Virus record (IMG/VR): IMGVR_UViG_2645727868_000018
Strand: one strand, 5' to 3'
Source of the DNA: a virus
Taxonomy: Duplodnaviria > Heunggongvirae > Uroviricota > Caudoviricetes
Length of the DNA stretch: 15,264 nucleotides
Positions 2,382 to 14,399 of this stretch are shown here, piece by piece. Position numbers and translations under genes: made by a program. The stretch's first letter is position 1, and each line of letters starts with the position of its first letter. The notes under the pieces were generated by a model. The model was not told the DNA's origin and did no database searches. It worked only from the letters and a program-made list of their open reading frames with translations.

Positions 2382-2541
2382 GGTCTTTCCTCATTATGTA
2401 GCTTATTGCGTCATCTGCCTTCTGGCAGGCACGGGCAATATCAGACTCGGTCAAAGTCTGTTTCCTGACGCTGGCCGACAGTCGACCAATTTTGATATCA
2501 AATGCGGAGAGCAGAGTTGCTCCCGGTTGCCATCGCAGCAT
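2317..2541 (-). CDS. Hypothetical protein (74 aa from first in-frame ATG)
   Basis: The ORF-track entry 2317..2571 starts with TTG; the first ATG at 2541 has a good SD (GGAGGA, about 6-nt spacer). Its 3' end overlaps the xis-like ORF by 65 nt in another frame, so one of the two calls or their starts may be wrong. Confidence 0.3.
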   Translation of the reverse strand: MLRWQPGATLLSAFDIKIGRLSASVRKQTLTESDIARACQKADDAISYIMRKDHEKRSRHNHQRRNGRADGKPT

Positions 2542-2590
2542 TGTGATCCTCCGGTGTCTGGTGAATCGCAATGCTAGCGATGGTGAGTTT

Positions 2591-2773
2591 TTATTTCTGA
2601 TTAGGCGTAATCAGTTCTTGTGGGGTGAATGCCGATTTCTCCCGAGTGACCTTAATGTTTTCTGGCAGGTGTAGCCCAAGTTCGCAGCGGCTCCGTGCTT
2701 CAATAATGCCATTGGTACCATCGGCAAGTACCAGGTGAACCGCGTCACCACGCTTTAATGTGAGTTTAAGCAT
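2591..2773 (-). CDS. Small protein with CsrA/RsmA-like sequence pattern (60 aa)
   Basis: SD GAGGA 7-8 nt upstream of ATG; start overlaps the Gp157-like stop (TAATG). Ungapped comparison with E. coli CsrA (61 aa, recalled from memory) gives M1, L2, L4, T5, G9, G33, P37, V42, R44, E45 at identical positions. Assignment by eye, not by search. Confidence 0.45.
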   Translation of the reverse strand: MLKLTLKRGDAVHLVLADGTNGIIEARSRCELGLHLPENIKVTREKSAFTPQELITPNQK

Positions 2774-3342
2774 TAGCGTATCCTCAGTGACCGTTCGCCG
2801 CGTTCCAGATGTGCGCCTGGTACCGGGTTTAATAACTCGGCTGGTGGTGTTTCTCCACGCGCCAGTATTTCGGCGGCAACCGCCTCCGCAGATTCAATCA
2901 CTTCTTTAATGGCTCGCTTGTTTGGTGTAATAACCGTTTCTACATCAACAAGTGACACGCCCTCATACTCATCCGGGATCTTATCTTTGCTATCGATAAT
3001 TACCCGGATAGCCCCCTGTGCATCAGTAAATGTGTTTTTTGCGGTTTTCAGTTTATCCAGGCCAGCAGCTTGCAGGCAGGTGAGCATATGCTTTCGAATT
3101 GCTTTTTCCTTGCCTTCAAAGGACGTCTTACGGGTTGCCAGGCGAGACATTTCTTCAGCGCAGGTATTGGCATTGCCCTGTAAATTACGGCAGATGACCA
3201 TCATGGCGTCCAGTTTGTCTCCCAGTTCTCCTTCCATGCCTTCAAGCGTGTCGGCGATCATCTCTGGCGTCAGTTCATCGGCGGTTTCTAACAGGTCAAT
3301 CAGACTGGCATATTCTTTTGCAATAGCGATAGCAGTGCTCAT
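2773..3342 (-). CDS. Gp157-family phage protein (Sipho_Gp157-like), usually found in recombination modules
   Basis: 189-aa acidic, coiled-coil-rich protein. N-terminus ...LIDLLETADELTPEMIADTLEGMEGELGDKLDAMMVICRNLQGNANTCAEEMSRLATRK... and ...IPDEYEGV... match the recalled profile of the Gp157 family. SD AGGAG precedes the ATG at 3342; the gene is adjacent to a Sak/Rad52-like gene as usual for this family. Confidence 0.6.
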   Translation of the reverse strand: MSTAIAIAKEYASLIDLLETADELTPEMIADTLEGMEGELGDKLDAMMVICRNLQGNANTCAEEMSRLATRKTSFEGKEKAIRKHMLTCLQAAGLDKLKTAKNTFTDAQGAIRVIIDSKDKIPDEYEGVSLVDVETVITPNKRAIKEVIESAEAVAAEILARGETPPAELLNPVPGAHLERGERSLRIR

Positions 3343-5555
3343 GCTGTTTGCTCCTGTGCAGCGGTAAGGGCGGCGAGGCGTTCAGTTTTAATGTCGGTGA
3401 TACGGCGCAGACGTGATCCCAGATACGATGAATATTCTTTATCGCCTTTGGTTTCCGCTGCTTTCCTGTGTACATCCACTTCGCGGGCGATGAGGCCAAA
3501 TACCTTGTTTACTTCGTTGGCGGTTACCGCGGCGGCCAGCGTATTGGCAACGTTGATAAGCTTCTCATCCAGTTCCTTACGCAGACGGGTAGCATCTTCC
3601 GCATTCTCGCTGGCATTCTTGATATCAAACTCAGCTTTATTCCTCTGGCGGTATTCCGGATTGTCGTACAGGCCCATGAAAATATCGGCGCTGAATCCGA
3701 GAGGGGATAGCGCTTTCTTAACAGCATCCGTCCAGGATTTCTTCGGTGCTTCGCCGTCGCTTGTTGGTCCGTATTTAGTGTCGTAGATATAAGGTGTGCA
3801 TCCGTAAGCCTCGGACTCACCGCGTACCCCATTCAATATGTACCAGACTCTCACTTTCATGGTGTGGTGCATTTCACATAGGTACCCGCCAACACCGTCT
3901 TGAATCAGATCCCATTCTATTTTTTCACCAACCTGTTTTTTGCGAACTATTGGTGCGCCTTTATCAAAGCGCTCCTCCAGCACCTCTACCCCCCAGCCAA
4001 TACCAAATGGCCCAAATTCGCGAGTCGCTTTCATCGCTATATAAGTGCCGTTGATGGATGTGCCGCCGCCATTCTGAGAGAAAGCACTGGTGAAGCGCTC
4101 ATCGGTTTTGAATACGTTCTTCCACAATGCCAGGTTATCCGTGTCATCTGAGTCCTTTAACTCCGTTTCGATAGCTGAGATTGCATTCTGCCGCTTGTGC
4201 TCTTCGGCATGGATCCGCTCAACCAGCGCGTCAACGTTCTGCACCAGATCCTTTACCTGCTCGCTAAGTTGTTCTTGTGGAGGAGTCTCTTCTGCCAGGG
4301 TAATAGCTGCAGGTTCCCTCTGTGATACGGCGTTATTTTCAGGTACGTCATACACATGGCGAGGCGTGACAAACTGCTCACGCAACTGCTGCAAACTACG
4401 TTCTCCAGCATTTGCAGCTTCGCTTTTTTCGCCCTGATTTGAGGGTGTTTCTGACATCATCCCATCAATTGAGAATCGTCCGCCGCCGTGGTTGGTGACT
4501 TTTACATCATCCTTGGGTGCTGCTTCCTTTGGCTTCTCTTCAACAGCATTTGCATCACGCTGCCCGTTAGCTTGCAGCCAGTTGTCGATGTGACTGCGCA
4601 GGGATTGTGGGAAGTGGTACGTGTCTTTTGCGGGGGCGCTCTGAATAACACCGAATACTGATGCGCGGTCATAGGCAAGGATCTGATCCGTTGTGCGCAA
4701 GGCCATTGACCAGCGTTTAAAATCTTCCCTGTCCTGACTGATTATTTCGTCTGCCGCTTTCAGGATGCTGGGGGTGATTTTTTCCGGGGCAACAGGTAAC
4801 AGGGCGCAGGCAATTTCACGATCCAGAGTGGCGTGAGTCTGTTTGTAAGGACGTGCGGATGCTGTTTCTGGTTTTACCTCCGGCAGCATTTCATCTCGTT
4901 TACCGGGATTCTCTACCCATTTTTTTATAAATTTGGAGATAGTCCAACTGGTCGGGTTTTGTTCCTGGGTATCGCAACTTGCCAAAATTGCATGTACCAG
5001 ATTATTCAATCCAGCAATATGCATGTACTCGATGGGCTTACACGCCACCATGGCATCAAGAACGATGCGGTTAAACGCGTCAACCTCATCCTCACTGTCA
5101 GTATCACTGTTATCGAGCATCTCCAGGTATTCACGCGTCTGCACAAGCAATTCACTGTCGACTTCGTTGGCGTCGTGGCTGAACAGCAGAACGGCGGCGA
5201 ATCGTTCACGAGCCGGCAGTTTCATCAGGTCGCTAACCTGTGAGATATCTGCTGAACTGCAATCTGAATCAACAGGAGTGTTAACTACCCATTTTTCGCC
5301 ATCAAAACTGTGTTCTGTGGCAAACGTCTCATCAAACTCACCGACGCCTGGGCGCGGTTGGCCCGGGGCATCTTCCCAGATTTTAGGTTTGAAATAGTTG
5401 TCGCCGTGGTCAGGGTAGGCTTCCCACAATTTGCCGATGATGATGTTCTCGGCAACTTTTTTGTTAGGGGCGGCGATGGCGATGGCCAGCGCCGGGATCG
5501 CGCCGTTTTTGAGCGCGCCTTTTTTCGCTTCTAACAAGCCGTTAAAAATGGTCAT
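3339..5555 (-). CDS. Large phage protein (738 aa) with Rad52/Sak-type single-strand annealing domain in its C-terminal half; N-terminal ~450 aa of unknown function
   Basis: Uninterrupted 2217-nt ORF with the motif GAGGAAAGACC-A-ATG at its start. Residues ~480-640 (GGYLCEMHH...APKKSWTDAVKKALSPLGFSADIFMGLYDN) resemble the conserved core of Rad52/Sak annealing proteins (compare Rad52 KKSAVTDALKRSLRGFG and Sak SSALKRCASSGFGIGRYLYDL, both recalled from memory). Acidic low-complexity linker (DNSDTDSEDEVD) and a C-terminal coiled coil. Confidence 0.55.
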   Translation of the reverse strand: MTIFNGLLEAKKGALKNGAIPALAIAIAAPNKKVAENIIIGKLWEAYPDHGDNYFKPKIWEDAPGQPRPGVGEFDETFATEHSFDGEKWVVNTPVDSDCSSADISQVSDLMKLPARERFAAVLLFSHDANEVDSELLVQTREYLEMLDNSDTDSEDEVDAFNRIVLDAMVACKPIEYMHIAGLNNLVHAILASCDTQEQNPTSWTISKFIKKWVENPGKRDEMLPEVKPETASARPYKQTHATLDREIACALLPVAPEKITPSILKAADEIISQDREDFKRWSMALRTTDQILAYDRASVFGVIQSAPAKDTYHFPQSLRSHIDNWLQANGQRDANAVEEKPKEAAPKDDVKVTNHGGGRFSIDGMMSETPSNQGEKSEAANAGERSLQQLREQFVTPRHVYDVPENNAVSQREPAAITLAEETPPQEQLSEQVKDLVQNVDALVERIHAEEHKRQNAISAIETELKDSDDTDNLALWKNVFKTDERFTSAFSQNGGGTSINGTYIAMKATREFGPFGIGWGVEVLEERFDKGAPIVRKKQVGEKIEWDLIQDGVGGYLCEMHHTMKVRVWYILNGVRGESEAYGCTPYIYDTKYGPTSDGEAPKKSWTDAVKKALSPLGFSADIFMGLYDNPEYRQRNKAEFDIKNASENAEDATRLRKELDEKLINVANTLAAAVTANEVNKVFGLIAREVDVHRKAAETKGDKEYSSYLGSRLRRITDIKTERLAALTAAQEQTA

Positions 5556-5585
5556 TGGTCTTTCCTCATTACAGGTCAGTGGTTT

Positions 5586-5906
5586 TTAGTAGGGGAGCTC
5601 ATCGGTATCTGGCGTGTATTCGATGCAAAGTAACTGCTGGATTTTGTCATCGATAGCAGCAATACGCTGTTGGGCGTCGGCGACTGTTTTCTGTTTTTGT
5701 TCACGCAGTTGCTCGACCTGTAAACCGATGATGTCGATTGGCTCGGGCTGGTTAACGGTAATTTCAATTTCGCGGCTTTCCAGAAGGATGTACCTGTCTG
5801 GAAAATTTTTTGACATATCAACAGTCGCAACAAGCAGCTTTTCGTGGCTGAAAGTTGAAGTTGCATAATGAATAAAGAGTGTTACTGGGATGGTGCGCGC
5901 TTCCAT
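5586..5906 (-). CDS. Hypothetical protein (106 aa), first gene of the leftward early operon
   Basis: Strong SD (AAGGAG) 7 nt before the ATG at 5906; its stop lies 30 nt upstream of the 738-aa gene start. No recognisable family; not arginine-rich, so not N-like. Confidence 0.5.
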   Translation of the reverse strand: MEARTIPVTLFIHYATSTFSHEKLLVATVDMSKNFPDRYILLESREIEITVNQPEPIDIIGLQVEQLREQKQKTVADAQQRIAAIDDKIQQLLCIEYTPDTDELPY

Positions 5907-6303
5907 AGCGACTCCTTGGTAATGTATACTCAGAGCCGATCAGCGAATATTGATCAGCTTCCATAGCGTCAGTGTCGTTGGTCTTTCCTCATCACAAGTT
6001 TGGTCACTTGTGATAAATCCGAATGGTTTGGTCGCCGTTCGGGGTAACTGGCCCGCCTTGTGCGGGTCTTTTGCTATCTAAAGGGTGCCGGTTACGTTTC
6101 CGGCGTCGTTATGTTTCCATTACGACCGTACAGGGCTGGTCAGGCCCGGGCTGGTCTTTCCTGTTTTGAGCTGGTCAGGCTCATGGTCAACGCTGGTCAG
6201 GCGTGGTACTTCCTCCGGTCTTTCCCTGGTGTCACGCTGCGGGTTTGGCCTCTCCTGTTGGGGACTCAGGCACAGCGATAAAACCTGGCTGTGTGAAAAA
6301 ATG

Positions 6304-6323
6304 GCCCATCGTGCGGACTGGGC
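6304..6323 (-). terminator. Terminator-like hairpin plus U6 on the minus strand, 3' of the tRNA-like fragment
   Basis: Minus-strand reading GCCCA-gtccgcacga-TGGGC followed by CA-TTTTTT (plus 6296-6301 is AAAAAA). Short 5-bp stem with a 10-nt loop, so only a weak candidate. Confidence 0.25.
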
Positions 6324-6344
6324 AAAGACTAAACACAGCAAATT

Positions 6345-6372
6345 GATGATGGGCGCCCGGAATCGAACCGGG
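6345..6372 (-). other. tRNA-like fragment (T-arm plus acceptor-like 3' strand) inside the leftward leader
   Basis: Minus-strand sequence CCCGG-TTCGATT-CCGGG-CGCCCAT has a perfect 5-bp T-stem and canonical T-loop. No complementary acceptor 5' strand, D-arm or CCA could be found, so it is not a complete tRNA gene. Confidence 0.3.
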
Positions 6373-6769
6373 TAACGGGCAGGGAGTTCCCGTTAAACAC
6401 CTGTTCACCACAACCGGGAGCGCACTCCGCCATTTCAAAATTTAACGACAAAGCTCAAAGTTGAGTCGATGAAGTGCGCTCTCGTGTTGTAGCCAGGACT
6501 CTTCCCTGGTGGTCACACCGTATCGCCTTGATGGTGAATCAATCGCTCATACCTGGCTGTGGCTTGCACATTCCGGCTACCTGCTATGGAGACAACGCGT
6601 TAAGGCTCCGCTTCCATCCAGACCGCTTCGACACATGTGCCATATGCCGGTGAAGTCTTTCCCTCTGTCACCGTGTTGGCGCCGACGCGCAAAATTTGGT
6701 GCCGTCTTTCCGGCTGTCAGAACGTGTTTCTGAACAACTGCCGCTGGGTAAGCGTTGTTGATGAAAGTG

Positions 6770-6798
6770 ACTTTACAATTTGTATTTGTAATGGTCAA
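6770..6798 (-). promoter_or_regulatory. Candidate leftward early promoter (pL-like) with embedded operator motif
   Basis: On the minus strand: -35 TTGACC (rc of 6793-6798), 17-bp spacer ATTACAAATACAAATTG, -10 TAAAGT (rc of 6770-6775). The spacer and flank carry the same ATTTGTA-type motif as the cI/cro operator region (ATAATTTGTA also at 6811-6820). Confidence 0.4.
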
Positions 6799-6916
6799 TG
6801 TGTTTTTAAAAAATAATTTGTAGTGAGGGGCAAAAAAATATTCACTGTGTAAAGGTGTTTTTGTGTTAGGGGAAAGTTGCATGCCAGCAGCGGCTGGCCT
6901 GGAAATTTGAACTGAA

Positions 6917-7717: not shown

Positions 7718-8194
7718 ATGGAAAACCAAGAGGAATTACAAAAAGAGATTTTGACCTGGGCGGCAAGGGCAGGGCAGGAACTCGTCACGATTGAAATCTG
7801 CCGGGCCTGGTTCAGTCAGGGACGCAATGATGAGTTGAGACTACATGAATTTGAGGACGCGGACGGCAACGTGGACTGGAGAGCCATCAACAACAATCGG
7901 CAGAAAATCTTTCGCTGGTTACGTGGCGAGACAACGGCGGCGCGCCGAAAAACTCAGGTGCTGGCCAGTGTGATGAAAGCCGTGCTACCCGCAGAACGGC
8001 GGGCACGTCTGGAGTCGCCGGGCGATCCCGTTTTGCTGGCAACGCTGGCGGCAAAAGAAGGGGTGGAAGCGATTAACGCTGTACATCTCCACTTCGCGCC
8101 AGAGTTAACTATTCAGGAAATTGACGAAGCAATAGCGGCGCTGGTAGCGACGCGAGGAGCAGTGATACGCACTGCGCAAGACCACCATGCATGA
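7718..8194 (+). CDS. CII-like early regulatory protein (YdaT/CP76-like), tentative
   Basis: 158-aa ORF with SD AGGAG, immediately downstream of cro as in the Rac ydaS-ydaT and lambda cro-cII arrangements. The family call rests on synteny and general resemblance only. Confidence 0.45.
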   Translation: MENQEELQKEILTWAARAGQELVTIEICRAWFSQGRNDELRLHEFEDADGNVDWRAINNNRQKIFRWLRGETTAARRKTQVLASVMKAVLPAERRARLESPGDPVLLATLAAKEGVEAINAVHLHFAPELTIQEIDEAIAALVATRGAVIRTAQDHHA

Positions 8195-8233: not shown

Positions 8234-8458
8234 ATGTTAAGACATATTGACCGCATTACCTGGCGTAACGGCTGGCACCTGAATGGACGCCCGGCACATG
8301 TTGCAGAGATCCGCCCCATATTCGATGGCCGCGTCGCAGCTGCACGTTCTGTATGGGAAAAGTACGAAGAAGAAAAAGCGAAACTGCGTGAGCAAAATCT
8401 CTCTGGCGCTGCCTATGAGGCTGGCTGTCGCGTTCTCTCAGAGGCTTTGGGCATATGA
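8234..8458 (+). CDS. Hypothetical protein (74 aa)
   Basis: Preceded by the conserved motif GAGGAAAGACC-G-ATG. Its stop overlaps the next start (ATGA), consistent with translational coupling to the replication gene. Confidence 0.45.
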   Translation: MLRHIDRITWRNGWHLNGRPAHVAEIRPIFDGRVAAARSVWEKYEEEKAKLREQNLSGAAYEAGCRVLSEALGI

Positions 8459-9210
8459 ACATCCTCCCGTTACTTGATAGACCCATAGCCTTCCAGAGAA
8501 GTTTTATCCGTCTTGAAATGGGCGTGACTGCCGCATTGTTTCTGTCGCAGTTGACGTACTGGACAAACAGAACAACTGACGACGGCTGGGTATATAAAAC
8601 CCAGGATGAGTGGGAAGAGGAAACAGGGCTTTCACGATACGAGCAGGAGGGCGCGCGCAAAAAACTACGTGGTCTCGGCGTCTTGCTGGAACGTAAACAG
8701 GGCTTGCCTGCCAGGCTGTACTACAAAATCGATAATGATGTGTTGTGCCAGCTACTTACGTCCGCATACAAGGATGCGGAAAAACCACATACAGGTGAGG
8801 GGAAAACCACCAGGCCTGTACGTGGAAAACCAACAAACATTCTTACAGAGAATACTACAGAGATTATTACTGATGGTGAATCGGCTGACGCCGACACCCA
8901 ACAACCTGCCGACCAGAGAATAAATTATCAGGTGATACTCGATACCTATCACGAGATTTTGCCAGAGATGCCACCAGTGAAAATCCTCACTGACGGCAGA
9001 AAAAAACACCTTCGCACTTTCTGGAAAAAATTCAATTTCAATGAGTCCCGTTGGCGGGCCTATCTGGAATTTATCGGTGGCAATTGTCGCTGGATGCTGG
9101 AGGACAGGCCAAATGGCAGGGGAGGATTCTGGCGGCGTAAAAATCTTGATTATCTGATTACCGAACGCTGCTATGTTTCGGTCAAGGAAGAACGCGCAAA
9201 TGATAAATAA
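8455..9210 (+). CDS. Phage replication initiation protein / replisome organizer (lambda O, P22 gp18 functional analog)
   Basis: 251-aa ORF. N-terminal winged-helix-like region (...TQDEWEEETGLSRYEQEGARKKLRGLGVLLERKQG...), central linker encoded by iteron-like DNA, conserved C-terminal region (...RWRAYLEFIGGNCRWMLEDRPNGRGGFWRRKNLDYLI...). Lies immediately upstream of and overlaps a DnaB-family helicase gene. Confidence 0.65.
   Translation: MNILPLLDRPIAFQRSFIRLEMGVTAALFLSQLTYWTNRTTDDGWVYKTQDEWEEETGLSRYEQEGARKKLRGLGVLLERKQGLPARLYYKIDNDVLCQLLTSAYKDAEKPHTGEGKTTRPVRGKPTNILTENTTEIITDGESADADTQQPADQRINYQVILDTYHEILPEMPPVKILTDGRKKHLRTFWKKFNFNESRWRAYLEFIGGNCRWMLEDRPNGRGGFWRRKNLDYLITERCYVSVKEERANDK
8778..8875. 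repeat. Candidate replication origin: three iteron-like direct repeats GGAAAA(A)CCA(C/A)CA at 23-bp spacing followed by an AT-rich tract, inside the replication initiator gene
   Basis: Seen in sequence: repeats at 8778-8789, 8801-8812 and 8824-8835, then the AT-rich stretch ACAAACATTCTTACAGAGAATACTACAGAGATTATTAC. Lambda-type origins sit within the O gene linker in the same way. Confidence 0.35.
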
Positions 9211-10615
9211 CGCGATTGCACTGTACAGCGTTGACGCAGAACAGGCTGTTCTGGGCTGTCTGATGCTGAATACCGACCACGACAGAACCAATGCGGTATT
9301 TGCGTTACTGAAACCGGAAACGTTTTATATCAATGCGCATCAGGTTATCTACCGGGAGATCAAAGGATTATTTCAAGCTGATAAACCAACTGACCTGATA
9401 ACACTGACCGAACTGATGGAATCGAAGGGGCTGTATGAGCGCGTGGGGGGATTCGCATACCTGGCTGAAATGAGTAAGGCGGCGATTCCGGCCTCAATGG
9501 TCAACTACGCGAAAATTGTACGTGAAAAAGCCATTCTTCGTTATGCCGTGGAAAAGTTGAATTCTTGTCTGGAGATTATGATCCAGCCTGCAGATATGAC
9601 TGCTACTGACAGGATCACCGCCGTTCAGCAAGTGATTGGGCAGGTGGCCGAACATTCCCGTACCGGGCATAAGGGCGGTTTGCGTCCGGCAAGTGAAGTC
9701 GTCGATGACTGGATAGATGACCTTGAGCGCCGTTTCAATGATCCAGCACATGCAGCCGGACTAACGCTCGGAATCGAAAGCCTTGATCGCTTAATGGCAC
9801 CAAAGCAGGCGTTAAGAGGTTCATTGGTCGTTATTGGTGCCCGGCCAAAAATGGGCAAGACAGCCGCGTTTAATAAAATTGCGGTGCATTTTGCTCTGAA
9901 TCATCGTTTGCCGACGCTGGTATTTAGCCTGGAAATGACTGACAGAAGTCTCATTGAACGCATGGTTGCGCAGGAAGCAAAGGTCAATTCGGAGATTTTT
10001 TATCTTGGCCCTAACGATGAATCTGAATTGAGTCTCGCAATAGCAAAGGCGGGGGAGATTGCCGAATCCAACATGATGATTGACAGCACGGCAGGTGTAA
10101 CCCTTGCGCATATTGTCGCTGAATGTCGAAAAGTTAAACGGATGCGTGGCTCGGTTGGCCTGGTGGCAATTGACTATTTGACGCTGATGAAGACCGAATC
10201 GGCAGAGCGTAGGGATATTGCGTATGGCGATATCACAACCGGTTTGAAGAACCTGGCAAAAGAGCTGGATTGTGTTGTGGTCCTGCTGACGCAACTCAAC
10301 CGAAAGCTTGAAGAACGTGCCGATAAGCGGCCTAACCCGAGCGACAGTAAAGATACCGGGCAGATCGAACAAGATTGCGATGTCTGGATTGGCCTCTATC
10401 GTGATGCTGTTTATAACGAAAATGCCGACCCAAATCTCATGGAAATGTTGCTACGTCTGAACCGCGAAGGACCATCGGGAACAGCCTATGCCCTGATGAA
10501 AAATGGCTCAGTTATTGATATCAGCGATGAGGAGGTTTATCGCCTTACCAACGACCGCTCAGAAAAAAATAAACGTTATTCCCGTAGCGATAATTCTCGC
10601 ACAAATGAATTTTAA
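9200..10615 (+). CDS. DnaB-family replicative DNA helicase (phage-encoded, P22 gp12-like)
   Basis: Collinear similarity to E. coli DnaB recalled from memory: SVDAEQAVLGCLML vs SIEAEQSVLGGLML, ITLTELMESKGLYERVGGFAYLAEMSK, Walker A GARPKMGKT, LVFSLEM, VAIDYLTLM, LLTQLNRKLEERADKRPNPSDSKDTGQIEQD. Start taken at ATG 9200 (MINNAIALYS...); the ORF track offers 9173. Confidence 0.9.
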   Translation: MINNAIALYSVDAEQAVLGCLMLNTDHDRTNAVFALLKPETFYINAHQVIYREIKGLFQADKPTDLITLTELMESKGLYERVGGFAYLAEMSKAAIPASMVNYAKIVREKAILRYAVEKLNSCLEIMIQPADMTATDRITAVQQVIGQVAEHSRTGHKGGLRPASEVVDDWIDDLERRFNDPAHAAGLTLGIESLDRLMAPKQALRGSLVVIGARPKMGKTAAFNKIAVHFALNHRLPTLVFSLEMTDRSLIERMVAQEAKVNSEIFYLGPNDESELSLAIAKAGEIAESNMMIDSTAGVTLAHIVAECRKVKRMRGSVGLVAIDYLTLMKTESAERRDIAYGDITTGLKNLAKELDCVVVLLTQLNRKLEERADKRPNPSDSKDTGQIEQDCDVWIGLYRDAVYNENADPNLMEMLLRLNREGPSGTAYALMKNGSVIDISDEEVYRLTNDRSEKNKRYSRSDNSRTNEF

Positions 10616-12241: not shown

Positions 12242-12270
12242 TTGACTTAGAAAAAGTCCGGGGCTATAGT
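12242..12270 (+). promoter_or_regulatory. Near-consensus sigma70 promoter (TTGACT, 17 bp, TATAGT) upstream of the antirepressor leader
   Basis: Seen in sequence: -35 TTGACT at 12242-12247, 17-bp spacer, -10 TATAGT at 12265-12270. Located directly after the stop of the 73-aa ORF. Confidence 0.5.
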
Positions 12271-12330
12271 TTCCGCGCAGCCGCAAAATCGGTTGCCGGG
12301 ATTGGCGTCCCGGATATCTAAGTGACGCAT

Positions 12331-12351
12331 AGCCGCGTTAGCGGTTTTTTT
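12331..12351 (+). terminator. Short intrinsic terminator or attenuator (6-bp stem with one G-U pair, 4-nt loop, U7) about 75 nt downstream of the promoter
   Basis: AGCCGC-GTTA-GCGGTT followed by TTTTT (T-run 12345-12351). Preceded by a perfect hairpin CCGGGA-TTGGCG-TCCCGG at 12296-12313. Together with the promoter this defines a short transcript or a leader attenuator about 160 nt ahead of the antirepressor start. Confidence 0.4.
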
Positions 12352-12512
12352 ATGTGTTAGGCACGGCCACATTCGCATTATGGTGGGCTGTGTGGGGGCT
12401 TCTGTGGAAGCGCCGGGTTCACTTAGCCGGTTACGCCAACCCTGCACAGCTCACCACCAGATGATTGGCGTCGCTGGTGGTGATGAAAAAAACACTAAGT
12501 GAGGCCACTGCG

Positions 12513-13301
12513 ATGACAGTCCAAATATCTGCGGAATCCCTTTCTCCGCTACATCATAACCAACTTCCCGTCATCACTACTGAATTGCTTGCCAGTTTGT
12601 ATGGCACGGAAGTAAATGGTATCCAGCAAAACTTCAAGCGCAACATCGCCAGATTTGTCGTAGGAAAGCATTTTTTTAAGCTGGAAGGTAATGAATTACG
12701 CGACTTCAAAAACAGACTGACAGATAGTCAGTCAGTTGCTAAACATACCCGATCCCTCATTCTCTGGACAGAACGCGGCGCAGCTCGCCATGCCAAAATG
12801 CTGGAAACAGAACAGGCCTGGGAAGTTTTCGAAAAGCTGGAAGATTGTTATTTTAGCCAGCGTCCAGAGAGGCGGAGTACAACTACCGATGACCGTACTC
12901 CCTTGCGTGATGCCGTTAATATACTGGTCGGCAAGAAAGGCATGATGTATCCCGATGCCTACACCATGATTCATCAACGCTTCGCCGTCTCTCACATAGA
13001 ACAACTGTCACAGACGCAAATGTTAGAGGCGATTGAATACATCCACTGCCTGCTACTCGATGAAAATCACCCAACCATTCCAGATTTTTCTTTTATCACC
13101 ACTATCAAAAATGGAAAAGTGACCGGGATGCGCCATGTTGCCAAAGGCGAACATCTGATGACCTTTGACGCTTTCAAAGAGATCGCTGAGCGGGCAGGGT
13201 ATCTGGTGATCCACAGCGACAATCTGCGAAGTATGACACTGGATAAATTGATGGTAATGGGGAAAAAGTCGGCTATATCCGTTGCTAATTCAGCATTTTG
13301 A
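12513..13301 (+). CDS. Phage antirepressor-like protein with ORF6N-type N-terminal domain
   Basis: N-terminal region LPVITTELLASLYGTEVNGIQQNFKRNIARFVVGKHFFKLEGNELRDF matches the recalled ORF6N (antirepressor/Rha-like) pattern. Start placed at ATG 12513 (SD GTGAGG, 8-nt spacer); the ORF-track start at 12465 is a TTG inside a hairpin. Confidence 0.65.
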   Translation: MTVQISAESLSPLHHNQLPVITTELLASLYGTEVNGIQQNFKRNIARFVVGKHFFKLEGNELRDFKNRLTDSQSVAKHTRSLILWTERGAARHAKMLETEQAWEVFEKLEDCYFSQRPERRSTTTDDRTPLRDAVNILVGKKGMMYPDAYTMIHQRFAVSHIEQLSQTQMLEAIEYIHCLLLDENHPTIPDFSFITTIKNGKVTGMRHVAKGEHLMTFDAFKEIAERAGYLVIHSDNLRSMTLDKLMVMGKKSAISVANSAF

Positions 13302-13475: not shown

Positions 13476-14399
13476 TTATTGGTTTCTGAGGAAAGCGATT
13501 CTTGAAAGGGTCATTTGCGTCTGGCAGTCGACCATTTTCTTGACTTCAGCATCTGTTCCCTGCATTGAAACTTTACCGCACATAGCATCCTTAGTTTTGA
13601 TCCACTGACGCTGAGAAGGCAGCAAATCTTTTTTCTTCGCCGGGGTTAACTTGCTCCAGACGGTACTCAAATCAGAGTCGGCATTCGCAAATGCCATTCG
13701 GGACTGATCAAGGTTGTCAGCTTTTTGCGGCTGAAGTTGTGCCTGTCTCTCTATTTGCTTCTCCGCCTCATACTTAGCCTGTTCTTGCGCCCTGAGTTGC
13801 ACCTGTTGTTCCGCTTCAATTTGACTCTGTTGGGCATCCTTAGCCTGCTGGATTTTCTGCTGCTCAACGATCGGGGTGATAATGGAAAGCGATGTCAGTA
13901 AAGCGGCGCCCACTGATATCGGATTATCAGTAGAGGTTTTTACAAAAACGTTTTTCTGATCGTCGGTCGCCTGCACGGTGTAGGTGATACGTTTTGAAAA
14001 GGCGTTTGCGTTGTTCTCCAAAAACAGGCTTTCCATTTGCTTATCGAGATTACGATTAAAATTCTTTCTGTAAGCATCTGAAAGCTGGACGTACTCGTTC
14101 GCAGATAGAGTCATCGTCACGGTCCCTTCACAAGTTTTCATTGTGCTGCCCGTGTCACTTGATGTTGTGGAGATCTCAGAGATGGCTAGTTTGATCTTGT
14201 CCAGTGTGCTTCGTTTGGTCTGATTAGTGACATCAGGGTATTTATCGACCTGTTCAGAGAGTCCTTCATAAGCAGATTTTTTTAATAAATCCATGAGAGC
14301 TGACTGGGTTATTTCCGAAGAACAACCGATCTCATCTTTTTTGTTATCACAGCCTGTAAGGGCAATGGCGAGTAAGAGTACTGAGTATTTTAATCTCAT
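13476..14399 (-). CDS. Lipoprotein with C-terminal DUF1311 (LprI-like) domain and central Gln/Ala/Glu-rich coiled coil
   Basis: N-terminal signal peptide with lipobox (MRLKYSVLLLAIALTGC). C-terminus ...SQRQWIKTKDAMCGKVSMQGTDAEVKKMVDCQTQMTLSRIAFLRN fits the DUF1311 pattern recalled from memory. 307-aa ORF. Confidence 0.75.
   Translation of the reverse strand: MRLKYSVLLLAIALTGCDNKKDEIGCSSEITQSALMDLLKKSAYEGLSEQVDKYPDVTNQTKRSTLDKIKLAISEISTTSSDTGSTMKTCEGTVTMTLSANEYVQLSDAYRKNFNRNLDKQMESLFLENNANAFSKRITYTVQATDDQKNVFVKTSTDNPISVGAALLTSLSIITPIVEQQKIQQAKDAQQSQIEAEQQVQLRAQEQAKYEAEKQIERQAQLQPQKADNLDQSRMAFANADSDLSTVWSKLTPAKKKDLLPSQRQWIKTKDAMCGKVSMQGTDAEVKKMVDCQTQMTLSRIAFLRNQ

Follow-up and report, generated by a model that had tools for sequence, protein, structure and literature searches.

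A predicted Rad52-fold annealing protein fused to a RecE-type N-terminal module in a prophage-like element of Escherichia coli

The stretch of DNA analysed here (hereafter the window, 15,264 nucleotides long, IMG/VR virus record IMGVR_UViG_2645727868_000018) is E. coli chromosome in which pgsA and the tRNA-Gly/Cys/Leu genes are followed by a tyrosine integrase gene and a prophage-like element. At positions 3339-5555 of its minus strand it carries a gene that probably encodes a phage single-strand annealing protein (SSAP) with the Rad52 fold, belonging to the recombination module that lies near the integrase in the early-left region of a lambdoid-type prophage next to tRNA-Leu. The best reading of the locus is a nuclease-less recombination cassette made up of an SSAP and a Gp157 protein, whose annealase has acquired the N-terminal adaptor of RecE; the database label of 'exonuclease' given to the 738-aa protein is wrong. 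The protein is made up of the following parts, some of them defined from AlphaFold2 (AF2) models:

3339..5555, minus strand: whole gene, encoding a 738-aa fusion of a RecE-type N-terminal module (N-module), a linker, a predicted Rad52-fold domain and a helical tail
5277..5555, minus strand: N-module subdomain D1, residues 1-93, a small alpha/beta domain
4881..5237, minus strand: N-module subdomain D2, residues 107-225, all-helical and acidic (isoelectric point, pI, 4.5)
4551..4856, minus strand: N-module subdomain D3, residues 234-335, helical (matches to PRK09709 and phrog_607, BLASTP to Rac RecE)
4149..4550, minus strand: acidic linker, residues 336-469
4455..4487, minus strand: short linear motif GGGRFSIDGMM, residues 357-367, within the linker (from alignments)
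3636..4148, minus strand: predicted Rad52-fold single-strand-annealing core, residues ~470-640 (AF2, Foldseek, weak Pfam match, invariant columns)
3342..3635, minus strand: conserved C-terminal helical tail, residues 641-738, a candidate partner-binding region (AF2 model, invariant columns)

The open reading frame (ORF) of 738 codons opens with ATG, 6-7 nucleotides downstream of the Shine-Dalgarno sequence GAGGAAAG, and was correctly delimited in a first-pass annotation made from the sequence alone, which had not given its strand. Its PGAP product name is 'hypothetical protein' (WP_000151806.1). Of 5426 complete E. coli genomes, 464 carry the gene with its surroundings (3.5 kb, window 2500-6000), every copy being chromosomal and 422 of the 464 showing at least 99% nucleotide identity. 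The same full-length architecture is seen in a cluster of at least 90% identity with 817 member sequences, in Salmonella homologues of 746-757 aa (some of their clusters occurring on at least 1000 contigs), in E. albertii and in two cultured phages, ZF40 of Pectobacterium and BUCT708 of Stenotrophomonas; in all, the fused form makes up 25 clusters at 50% identity and is kept down to ~30% identity. In IMG/VR, where the 80 closest loci and a further 80 loci retrieved with a profile of standalone relatives (ORFs of 225-325 aa) were counted, both domains lie in a single ORF in 78 of the 80 closest viral contigs, and inspection of the 738-aa ORF revealed no in-frame internal ATG with a Shine-Dalgarno sequence able to give a separate SSAP. 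Because the full-length architecture is conserved in E. coli, Salmonella and cultured phages, the long ORF is real and not a frameshift artefact. The architecture had been called unusual, and so it is among characterised SSAPs, but with 464 of the 5426 complete E. coli genomes carrying it, it is not rare. Several strains, NZ_CP107114.1 and NZ_CP107172.1 among them (hits H41-H48), carry ISEc52, a ~1.25-kb insertion sequence of the IS3 family, which divides a 3.5-kb region that is otherwise identical.

The evidence for an annealing protein comes from the C-terminal part. An alignment (A1) of residues 466-738 with 28 relatives, mostly standalone proteins, was used to obtain an AF2 model, which is confident (mean predicted local distance difference test score, pLDDT, of 88.1) and has a beta-beta-beta-alpha core superimposable on RAD52's N-terminal domain (NTD). 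In a Foldseek comparison of this model with the PDB, the top 7 hits are all human RAD52 NTD (1h2i, 1kn0, 5jrb, 8bjm, 8rjw), with a probability of 1.00, E-values of 1e-6 to 6e-6, 169-172 aligned columns and TM-scores (normalised to the target) of 0.46-0.60, the eighth hit being unrelated (E 0.011). Residues ~470-640 are thus predicted by the model to adopt the RAD52 NTD fold, as the first-pass annotation had proposed in placing a Rad52-type annealing core in the C-terminal half. Weak matches to the Pfam family Rad52_Rad22 (PF04098) are found in 25 of the 29 sequences of A1 (best E 8.3e-5), and in the 738-aa protein such a match spans residues 559-639 (profile positions 70-144).

Among 20 diverse fused proteins, sharing only 30-52% identity, 55 columns of the C-terminal part are invariant, including the segment KKSxTDxxKKALSxLGFxxD (605-624). 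This segment includes the motif KKSWTDAVKKALSPLGFSADIF, which had been quoted earlier as part of the core and does lie within it, beginning at residue 605. K605, K606 and K614 are invariant and K613 nearly so. This basic helix may correspond to the helix of human RAD52 that bears K152/R153 in the groove for single-stranded DNA (ssDNA). Beyond the core, three long helices are predicted by AF2 at 633-675, 679-702 and 706-737, and these are also strongly conserved, with many invariant columns in the 20 fused proteins. When phages were searched by tblastn, residues ~470-665 matched standalone proteins of ~180-280 aa from Pseudomonas, Vibrio, Sulfitobacter and Pelagibacter phages, a few of which (in Pseudomonas and Pelagibacter phages) are labelled Rad52-like or SSAP. 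The standalone relatives of 225-325 aa have the core at the N-terminus, in agreement with the earlier description of Sak/Rad52-type relatives as short proteins of this layout.

The N-terminal part had been regarded as an orphan of unknown kinship, a view that has to be abandoned: when the N-terminal alignment (1-345) was compared by hhalign with Rac RecE, residues 3-363 of the latter were matched with a probability of 100 and an E-value of 7.2e-41 over 317 columns. This profile comparison is decisive for the homology of residues 1-345 with the non-catalytic N-terminal ~360 residues of RecE. Pairwise identity to RecE is only ~16-26%, and direct BLASTP to Rac RecE is weak, with 26% identity over 70 aa (RecE residues 263-332). 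The part best conserved with RecE is D3 (RecE residues ~262-370), and it is to this region, residues ~232-336, that the ExoVIII models of PHROG and NCBIfam are matched, including phrog_607 and NCBIfam PRK09709 (E 1.9e-12, 46 bits against a cut-off of 1269, residues 233-336 only); a full-length PRK09709 match at its cut-off was not obtained for the 738-aa protein. Precomputed Pfam tags PF27430 and PF27432 cover the N-terminal part.

In the same 20 fused proteins only three columns of the N-module are invariant (A35, P69 and A249), and no conserved acidic or histidine residues of catalytic type are found in 1-345. Because the invariant columns are so few and none is a typical catalytic residue, the N-module is inferred to be a non-enzymatic, fast-evolving module for protein interaction or scaffolding. 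It is acidic by its pI, and no informative fold match was found for it. Among the Salmonella homologues P0006, P0012, P0013, P0014 and P0016 (alignment A3, columns ~270-375), some variants have D2 in tandem duplicate and are 804-844 aa long, whereas P0014 (710 aa) lacks the first D2 copy.

Between the N-module and the annealing domain lies the linker, which bears out the earlier mention of an acidic stretch before the core: residues 336-469 hold 26 D/E in 134 aa (pI 4.8), ending in a DDF-QxRA-type segment that also stands ahead of the annealing domain in homologues. Residues 148-159 form another, shorter acidic run, DNSDTDSEDEVD. The family consensus of the linker motif is LGxGxFSIDGL. A second motif, A(A/S)RGE(Y/F)V(E/D)GISDPxDPKW, is seen in the disordered linkers of Rac RecE (~452-470), P0017, P0201, P0296, P0300 and P0303; the 738-aa protein lacks it.

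When 1.84 billion representative proteins were searched exhaustively by phmmer for relatives of residues 1-344, only 136 clusters were returned, the C-terminal parts of which were sorted by classification with seed profiles. Apart from remaining clusters, which are mostly fragments, the following combinations were found:

N-module with the Rad52-like domain: 25 representative clusters
N-module with a PD-(D/E)XK DUF3799 nuclease (true RecE type): 13 representative clusters
N-module with a DEDD Rv2179c-like 3'-5' exonuclease: 12 representative clusters
N-module with RecT: 1 representative cluster
N-module with a small helical C-terminus bearing the motif YxQQLTIAALQGLCANPA, with no Pfam match: ~31 representative clusters

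The whole N-module is also present in the DEDD class (E 3e-45) and in the class bearing the small helical C-terminus (the fourth class, E 2e-53), as hhalign comparison demonstrates. The DEDD form stands alone directly before xis/int in phage HannyBb, and RecE is found with RecT in phages SPN3UB and mEp237. The fourth class (P0259, P0269, P0272-P0274, P0284, P0288 and others) consists of proteins of 520-760 aa; its C-terminus was considered as a diverged Rad52-like domain, and comparison showed the two to be unrelated. The N-module therefore appears to be a portable, non-catalytic module attached to several recombination enzymes, and its function cannot be exonuclease-specific, because the same module sits on an annealase and on three or four other heads. 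The first-pass annotation had suggested an exonuclease-recruiting or anti-nuclease domain; an exonuclease-recruiting role specific to the 738-aa protein is unlikely, since the N-module is also fused to exonucleases themselves.

A bolder proposal, which we advance tentatively and consider doubtful, is that the ~350-aa N-terminal region of RecE is a portable adaptor that defines a family of phage recombination proteins with interchangeable catalytic heads (a 5'-3' or 3'-5' exonuclease, a Rad52-fold annealase, RecT or a small helical domain). A ring of annealase subunits would then display ~10 copies of the adaptor on flexible acidic tethers, and such a multivalent machine might dock on a host factor or on DNA ends, replacing the usual handshake between exonuclease and annealase. 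Full-length RecE boosts linear-linear recombineering, and reviews from 2023 call the role of its N-terminus unknown (PMC11611040, PMC11610958); if true, the portable adaptor would explain why full-length RecE, and not the nuclease domain alone, promotes linear-linear recombination.

The second member of the cassette and the small genes flanking it are located as follows:

2773..3342, minus strand: Sipho_Gp157 family gene, 189 aa (Pfam PF05565, E 9e-29; phrog_253)
2591..2773, minus strand: downstream 60-aa gene, phrog_2482, overlapping the Gp157 gene (TAATG), also in BUCT708
5586..5906, minus strand: upstream 106-aa gene, phrog_2479, found beside the fused form in BUCT708 and ZF40

The stop codon of the 738-aa ORF overlaps the start codon of the Gp157 gene (ATGA), an arrangement of translational coupling. 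In 76 of the 80 closest loci a Gp157 gene lies directly downstream, at 0 or -3 nucleotides, and one is also the immediate downstream gene in 75 of the 80 standalone loci, with a 4-nucleotide overlap in 66; no N-module was found within 3 kb of these 80 standalone loci. Among cultured phages the fused form is paired with Gp157, usually with overlapping stop and start codons, in ZF40 and BUCT708, and the standalone ~250-aa form in phages PMG1 and PseuP_222 of Pseudomonas and D96a of Vibrio. As the pairing holds with or without the N-module, the Rad52-like protein and Gp157 constitute a conserved cassette, to which the N-module has been added in Enterobacterales-type phages. A different arrangement is seen in Pelagibacter phage HTVC035P, whose standalone homologue overlaps with a gene for a nuclease and not one for Gp157, forming a classical exonuclease-annealase pair. 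PHROGs labels Gp157 as 'Mu Gam-like end protection', and Gp157-like and Mu-Gam-like genes are equivalent neighbours of erf and sak4 in phages of Firmicutes (PMC8093625). A comparison of Gp157 with the sequences of solved structures found nothing.

Alongside the fused form, the phrog_2479 and phrog_2482 genes are present in BUCT708 and in part in ZF40; the other classes are without them. The 106-aa protein was considered as a relative of RacC from Rac and is unrelated to it; nor is its gene a general partner of the N-module, because none of the RecE-type, DEDD-type and standalone genes examined has it upstream.

When set beside known systems, the protein resembles the RAD52 NTD and Sak in the predicted fold of residues ~470-640, in its phage recombination-module context and in its standalone relatives of ~250 aa, whose core is N-terminal like that of Sak. 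It differs from them in showing no significant sequence similarity to Sak or RAD52 chains, with a Rad52_Rad22 score below threshold, and in having a C-terminal core with ~470 residues before it and a three-helix tail of ~100 aa after it, and whereas the neighbour of sak in phage ul36 is a gene for single-stranded DNA-binding protein, the partner here is Gp157. The likeness to RecE of the Rac/Gifsy type lies in the homology of the N-terminal ~345 residues with RecE 3-363, in the site of the gene, which corresponds to that of recE in Rac, with small early genes on one side, xis/int on the other and a tightly linked partner gene downstream, and in the likewise long and acidic linker, with short motifs in common in some family members. 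In contrast with RecE, the PD-(D/E)XK nuclease domain is replaced here by an annealing-type domain, and the downstream partner is Gp157 where that of RecE is RecT.

A 2025 survey of lambdoid Rec modules describes DnaQ-like nucleases and 'RecE-2' proteins, the latter being distant relatives of RecE without a nuclease domain and with unassigned roles (PMC12315714). Both the 738-aa protein and the P0259-like class agree with this description of RecE-2; the fourth-class proteins may be the 'RecE-2' of that study, and the 738-aa protein fits the description while adding a concrete C-terminal function to it. According to the same survey, Rec modules often lack a nuclease (84 of 246), among them the Erf/Abc/Arf module of P22, Sak4 of HK620 and SAP with MuGam of HK140, which share with the present module an annealase, an accessory or end-protection-type protein, the lack of a phage exonuclease and an int-proximal early operon (PMC12315714). 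These three differ from it in their annealase and accessory families, and none of their annealases is reported with a RecE-type N-module. Rad52-fold phage annealases, the enigmatic N-terminus of RecE and nuclease-less Rec modules are thus already known separately; the literature searched contains no description of a RecE N-module fused with a Rad52-fold annealase, or of the wider pattern in which a single N-module is combined with five or more alternative heads. A literature search by accession, Pfam and PHROG identifiers found nothing on the 738-aa protein.

After induction of the prophage, the C-terminal domain would oligomerise like Rad52 or Sak, bind ssDNA and anneal complementary strands, the outcome being RecA-independent recombination or repair of phage DNA, with Gp157 assisting through end protection or another accessory role. 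As in the Rec modules of P22 and HK620, which likewise have no nuclease, the ssDNA could be supplied by nucleases of the host or by replication forks. The N-module would serve as a non-enzymatic docking or scaffold module, held around the oligomer on long, flexible acidic tethers, and would direct the enzyme towards a shared partner or location, possibly DNA ends or a protein of host replication or repair; its function would be the same when fused to RecE-type or DEDD-type exonucleases or to RecT. The linker motif GGGRFSIDGMM may take part in docking, and the helical tail may bind a partner, by analogy with the C-terminal domains of SSAPs (PMC6393309, PMC13490951).

Several points weigh against this reading. 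The 738-aa protein scores 13.6 bits (E 0.065) against Rad52_Rad22, under the cut-off of 20.3, so that the Pfam comparison proposed in the first-pass annotation yielded the expected family only as a weak, sub-threshold match. HMMER searches of PDB sequences with the complete protein, with the family profile of its C-terminal part and with the 73-aa region around the motif recovered no RAD52 and nothing informative. In hhalign the family profile gave no significant match to ul36 Sak (ORF252; probability 0.4%, E 0.16, 26 columns), and membership of the Sak family by sequence, as suggested earlier, is not upheld. Since the predicted fold matches RAD52 but the PDB-sequence and ul36 Sak comparisons find nothing significant, the C-terminal domain is a Rad52-fold annealing-type domain of a distinct sequence family and not a Sak orthologue. 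SSAP activity is a prediction from fold, homologies and synteny for the family as a whole, and the source of ssDNA without a phage exonuclease is assumed. The AF2 model of residues 1-344, with three subdomains, is of moderate confidence (pLDDT 77.5, predicted TM-score 0.38). Finally, the role of Gp157 is known from annotation only, as BLASTP with Mu Gam is not significant and the two belong to different PHROGs.

Among other explanations, an unlikely though credible one is that the Rad52-like protein and Gp157 act mainly in phage DNA replication (restart, origin processing or concatemers) or in superinfection exclusion, and not in general recombination. Superinfection exclusion is reportedly the phenotype first described for gp157 of Sfi21. 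Pfam ties Gp157 (PF05565) to phage resistance, the SSAPs Sak and Sak4 are needed for the replication of some phages (PMC5499656) and the module adjoins the replication genes across the immunity region; however, the gene stands at the int-proximal Rec-module position, outside the O/DnaB replication block, and a replication role would overlap with the SSAP mechanism rather than exclude it.

Rather improbable is an anti-nuclease or anti-defence factor in which the Rad52 fold serves mainly as an oligomerisation ring and the N-module acts, for instance as an acidic DNA-mimic or decoy against RecBCD, a host nuclease or a defence system. Such a role would suit an acidic module (D2 pI 4.5) that evolves fast, as would be expected of an arms-race interface, in a recombination module that lacks a phage exonuclease and has a neighbour annotated with end protection; the N-terminus of RecE is also dispensable for core recombination (PMC11611040). 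Yet it is the C-terminal domain that is far more conserved and keeps the basic KK...KK expected in a DNA-binding groove, the same N-module is fused to real nucleases and the standalone versions without it keep the same Gp157 partner. PADLOC gave no defence-system match for the 738-aa protein or its neighbours, and no anti-defence family was matched.

That the protein is an exonuclease, as its database label has it and as RefSeq annotates ZF40 gp07 and the homologues in E. albertii, is very improbable. The label comes with a full-length match to phrog_2489 ('exonuclease'; E 0, 1318 bits, residues 1-737 against profile positions 1-728), with the partial ExoVIII matches and with homologues named 'exonuclease family protein'. 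The ExoVIII similarity is, however, confined to the non-catalytic N-terminal region of RecE, whose nuclease domain is C-terminal (residues 564-866; PMC11611040), and in the 738-aa protein the Rad52-fold domain stands in place of that nuclease domain, while the N-module lacks the catalytic-type residues looked for. As had been stated earlier of its motifs, the protein has no nuclease family match in Pfam or NCBIfam, and in particular no PD-(D/E)XK (DUF3799), YqaJ or DEDD match (Pfam, E < 0.1); indeed no significant domain of either database was found for the protein as a whole. A scan of the genes of the window likewise confirmed that the module has no separate exonuclease gene between the integrase and the cI-like repressor. 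Hardly conceivable, lastly, is a long ORF produced by the frameshift-joining of two genes, a possibility raised in the first-pass annotation, or by pseudogene decay in a defective prophage, for although the element may be a remnant, because no structural genes are present within 15 kb, and ISEc52 has inserted in the region in some strains, 422 of the 464 E. coli copies are at least 99% identical, the frame is uninterrupted in the 817-member cluster, Salmonella, ZF40, BUCT708 and 78 of 80 viral contigs, down to ~30% identity over 25 clusters, and no internal start for a separate SSAP is seen.

Pfam PF06630, named 'Exonuc_VIII', models the N-terminal ~200 residues of RecE and not its nuclease domain, matching ~4-116 of RecE-like proteins. 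From PF06630 the 'exonuclease' label has spread to nuclease-less Rad52-fold proteins, including standalone ones of 220-260 aa, the labels concerned being those of PHROGs 2489, 7838 and 607 and of the RefSeq records of ZF40, PMG1, D96a and pCB2047-C.

Taken as an SSAP, the 738-aa protein represents a very common recombinase of E. coli and Salmonella prophages that has been left unannotated or mis-annotated, which has consequences for estimating which prophages can recombine proficiently and are liable to mosaicism. The occurrence of the N-module on several heads makes the question of the RecE N-terminus testable by domain swaps, and the two-gene cassette of the Rad52-like protein and Gp157 is a possible compact recombineering system.

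Elsewhere in the window, no PGAP gene and no convincing ORF occupies the ~1 kb that separates the cI-like repressor from the recombination module (5907-6916); a sub-threshold RprA-like match at 6294-6404 on the minus strand (37 bits against a gathering score of 70) is the sole RNA signal there, and GC content rises up to 0.55 at 6200-6599. The gene in the position of cII (7718-8194, plus strand) is matched by Pfam YdaT_toxin as well as by the PHROG 'CII-like activator'. The O-like replication gene (8455-9210, plus strand) overlaps the ORF of a DnaB-type helicase (9173-10615, plus strand) by 38 nucleotides, or by ~11 nucleotides with the PGAP start of the helicase, which lies ~27 nucleotides later.

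Further along, Rfam matches to isrK and C4 antisense RNA together with its a1/b1 target, all above their gathering scores, are found at 12264-12461 on the plus strand, directly upstream of a gene for an anti-repressor with an ORF6N domain (12465-13301). By its sequence features, the region 12264-13301 is identified as an antisense-controlled anti-repressor switch resembling immI of P1/P7 inside a lambdoid-type element. Beyond the anti-repressor, at 13476-14399 on the minus strand, lies a possible moron, the gene of a 307-aa protein whose N-terminus resembles that of a lipoprotein (LLLAIALTGC) and whose C-terminal domain is an LprI lysozyme inhibitor.

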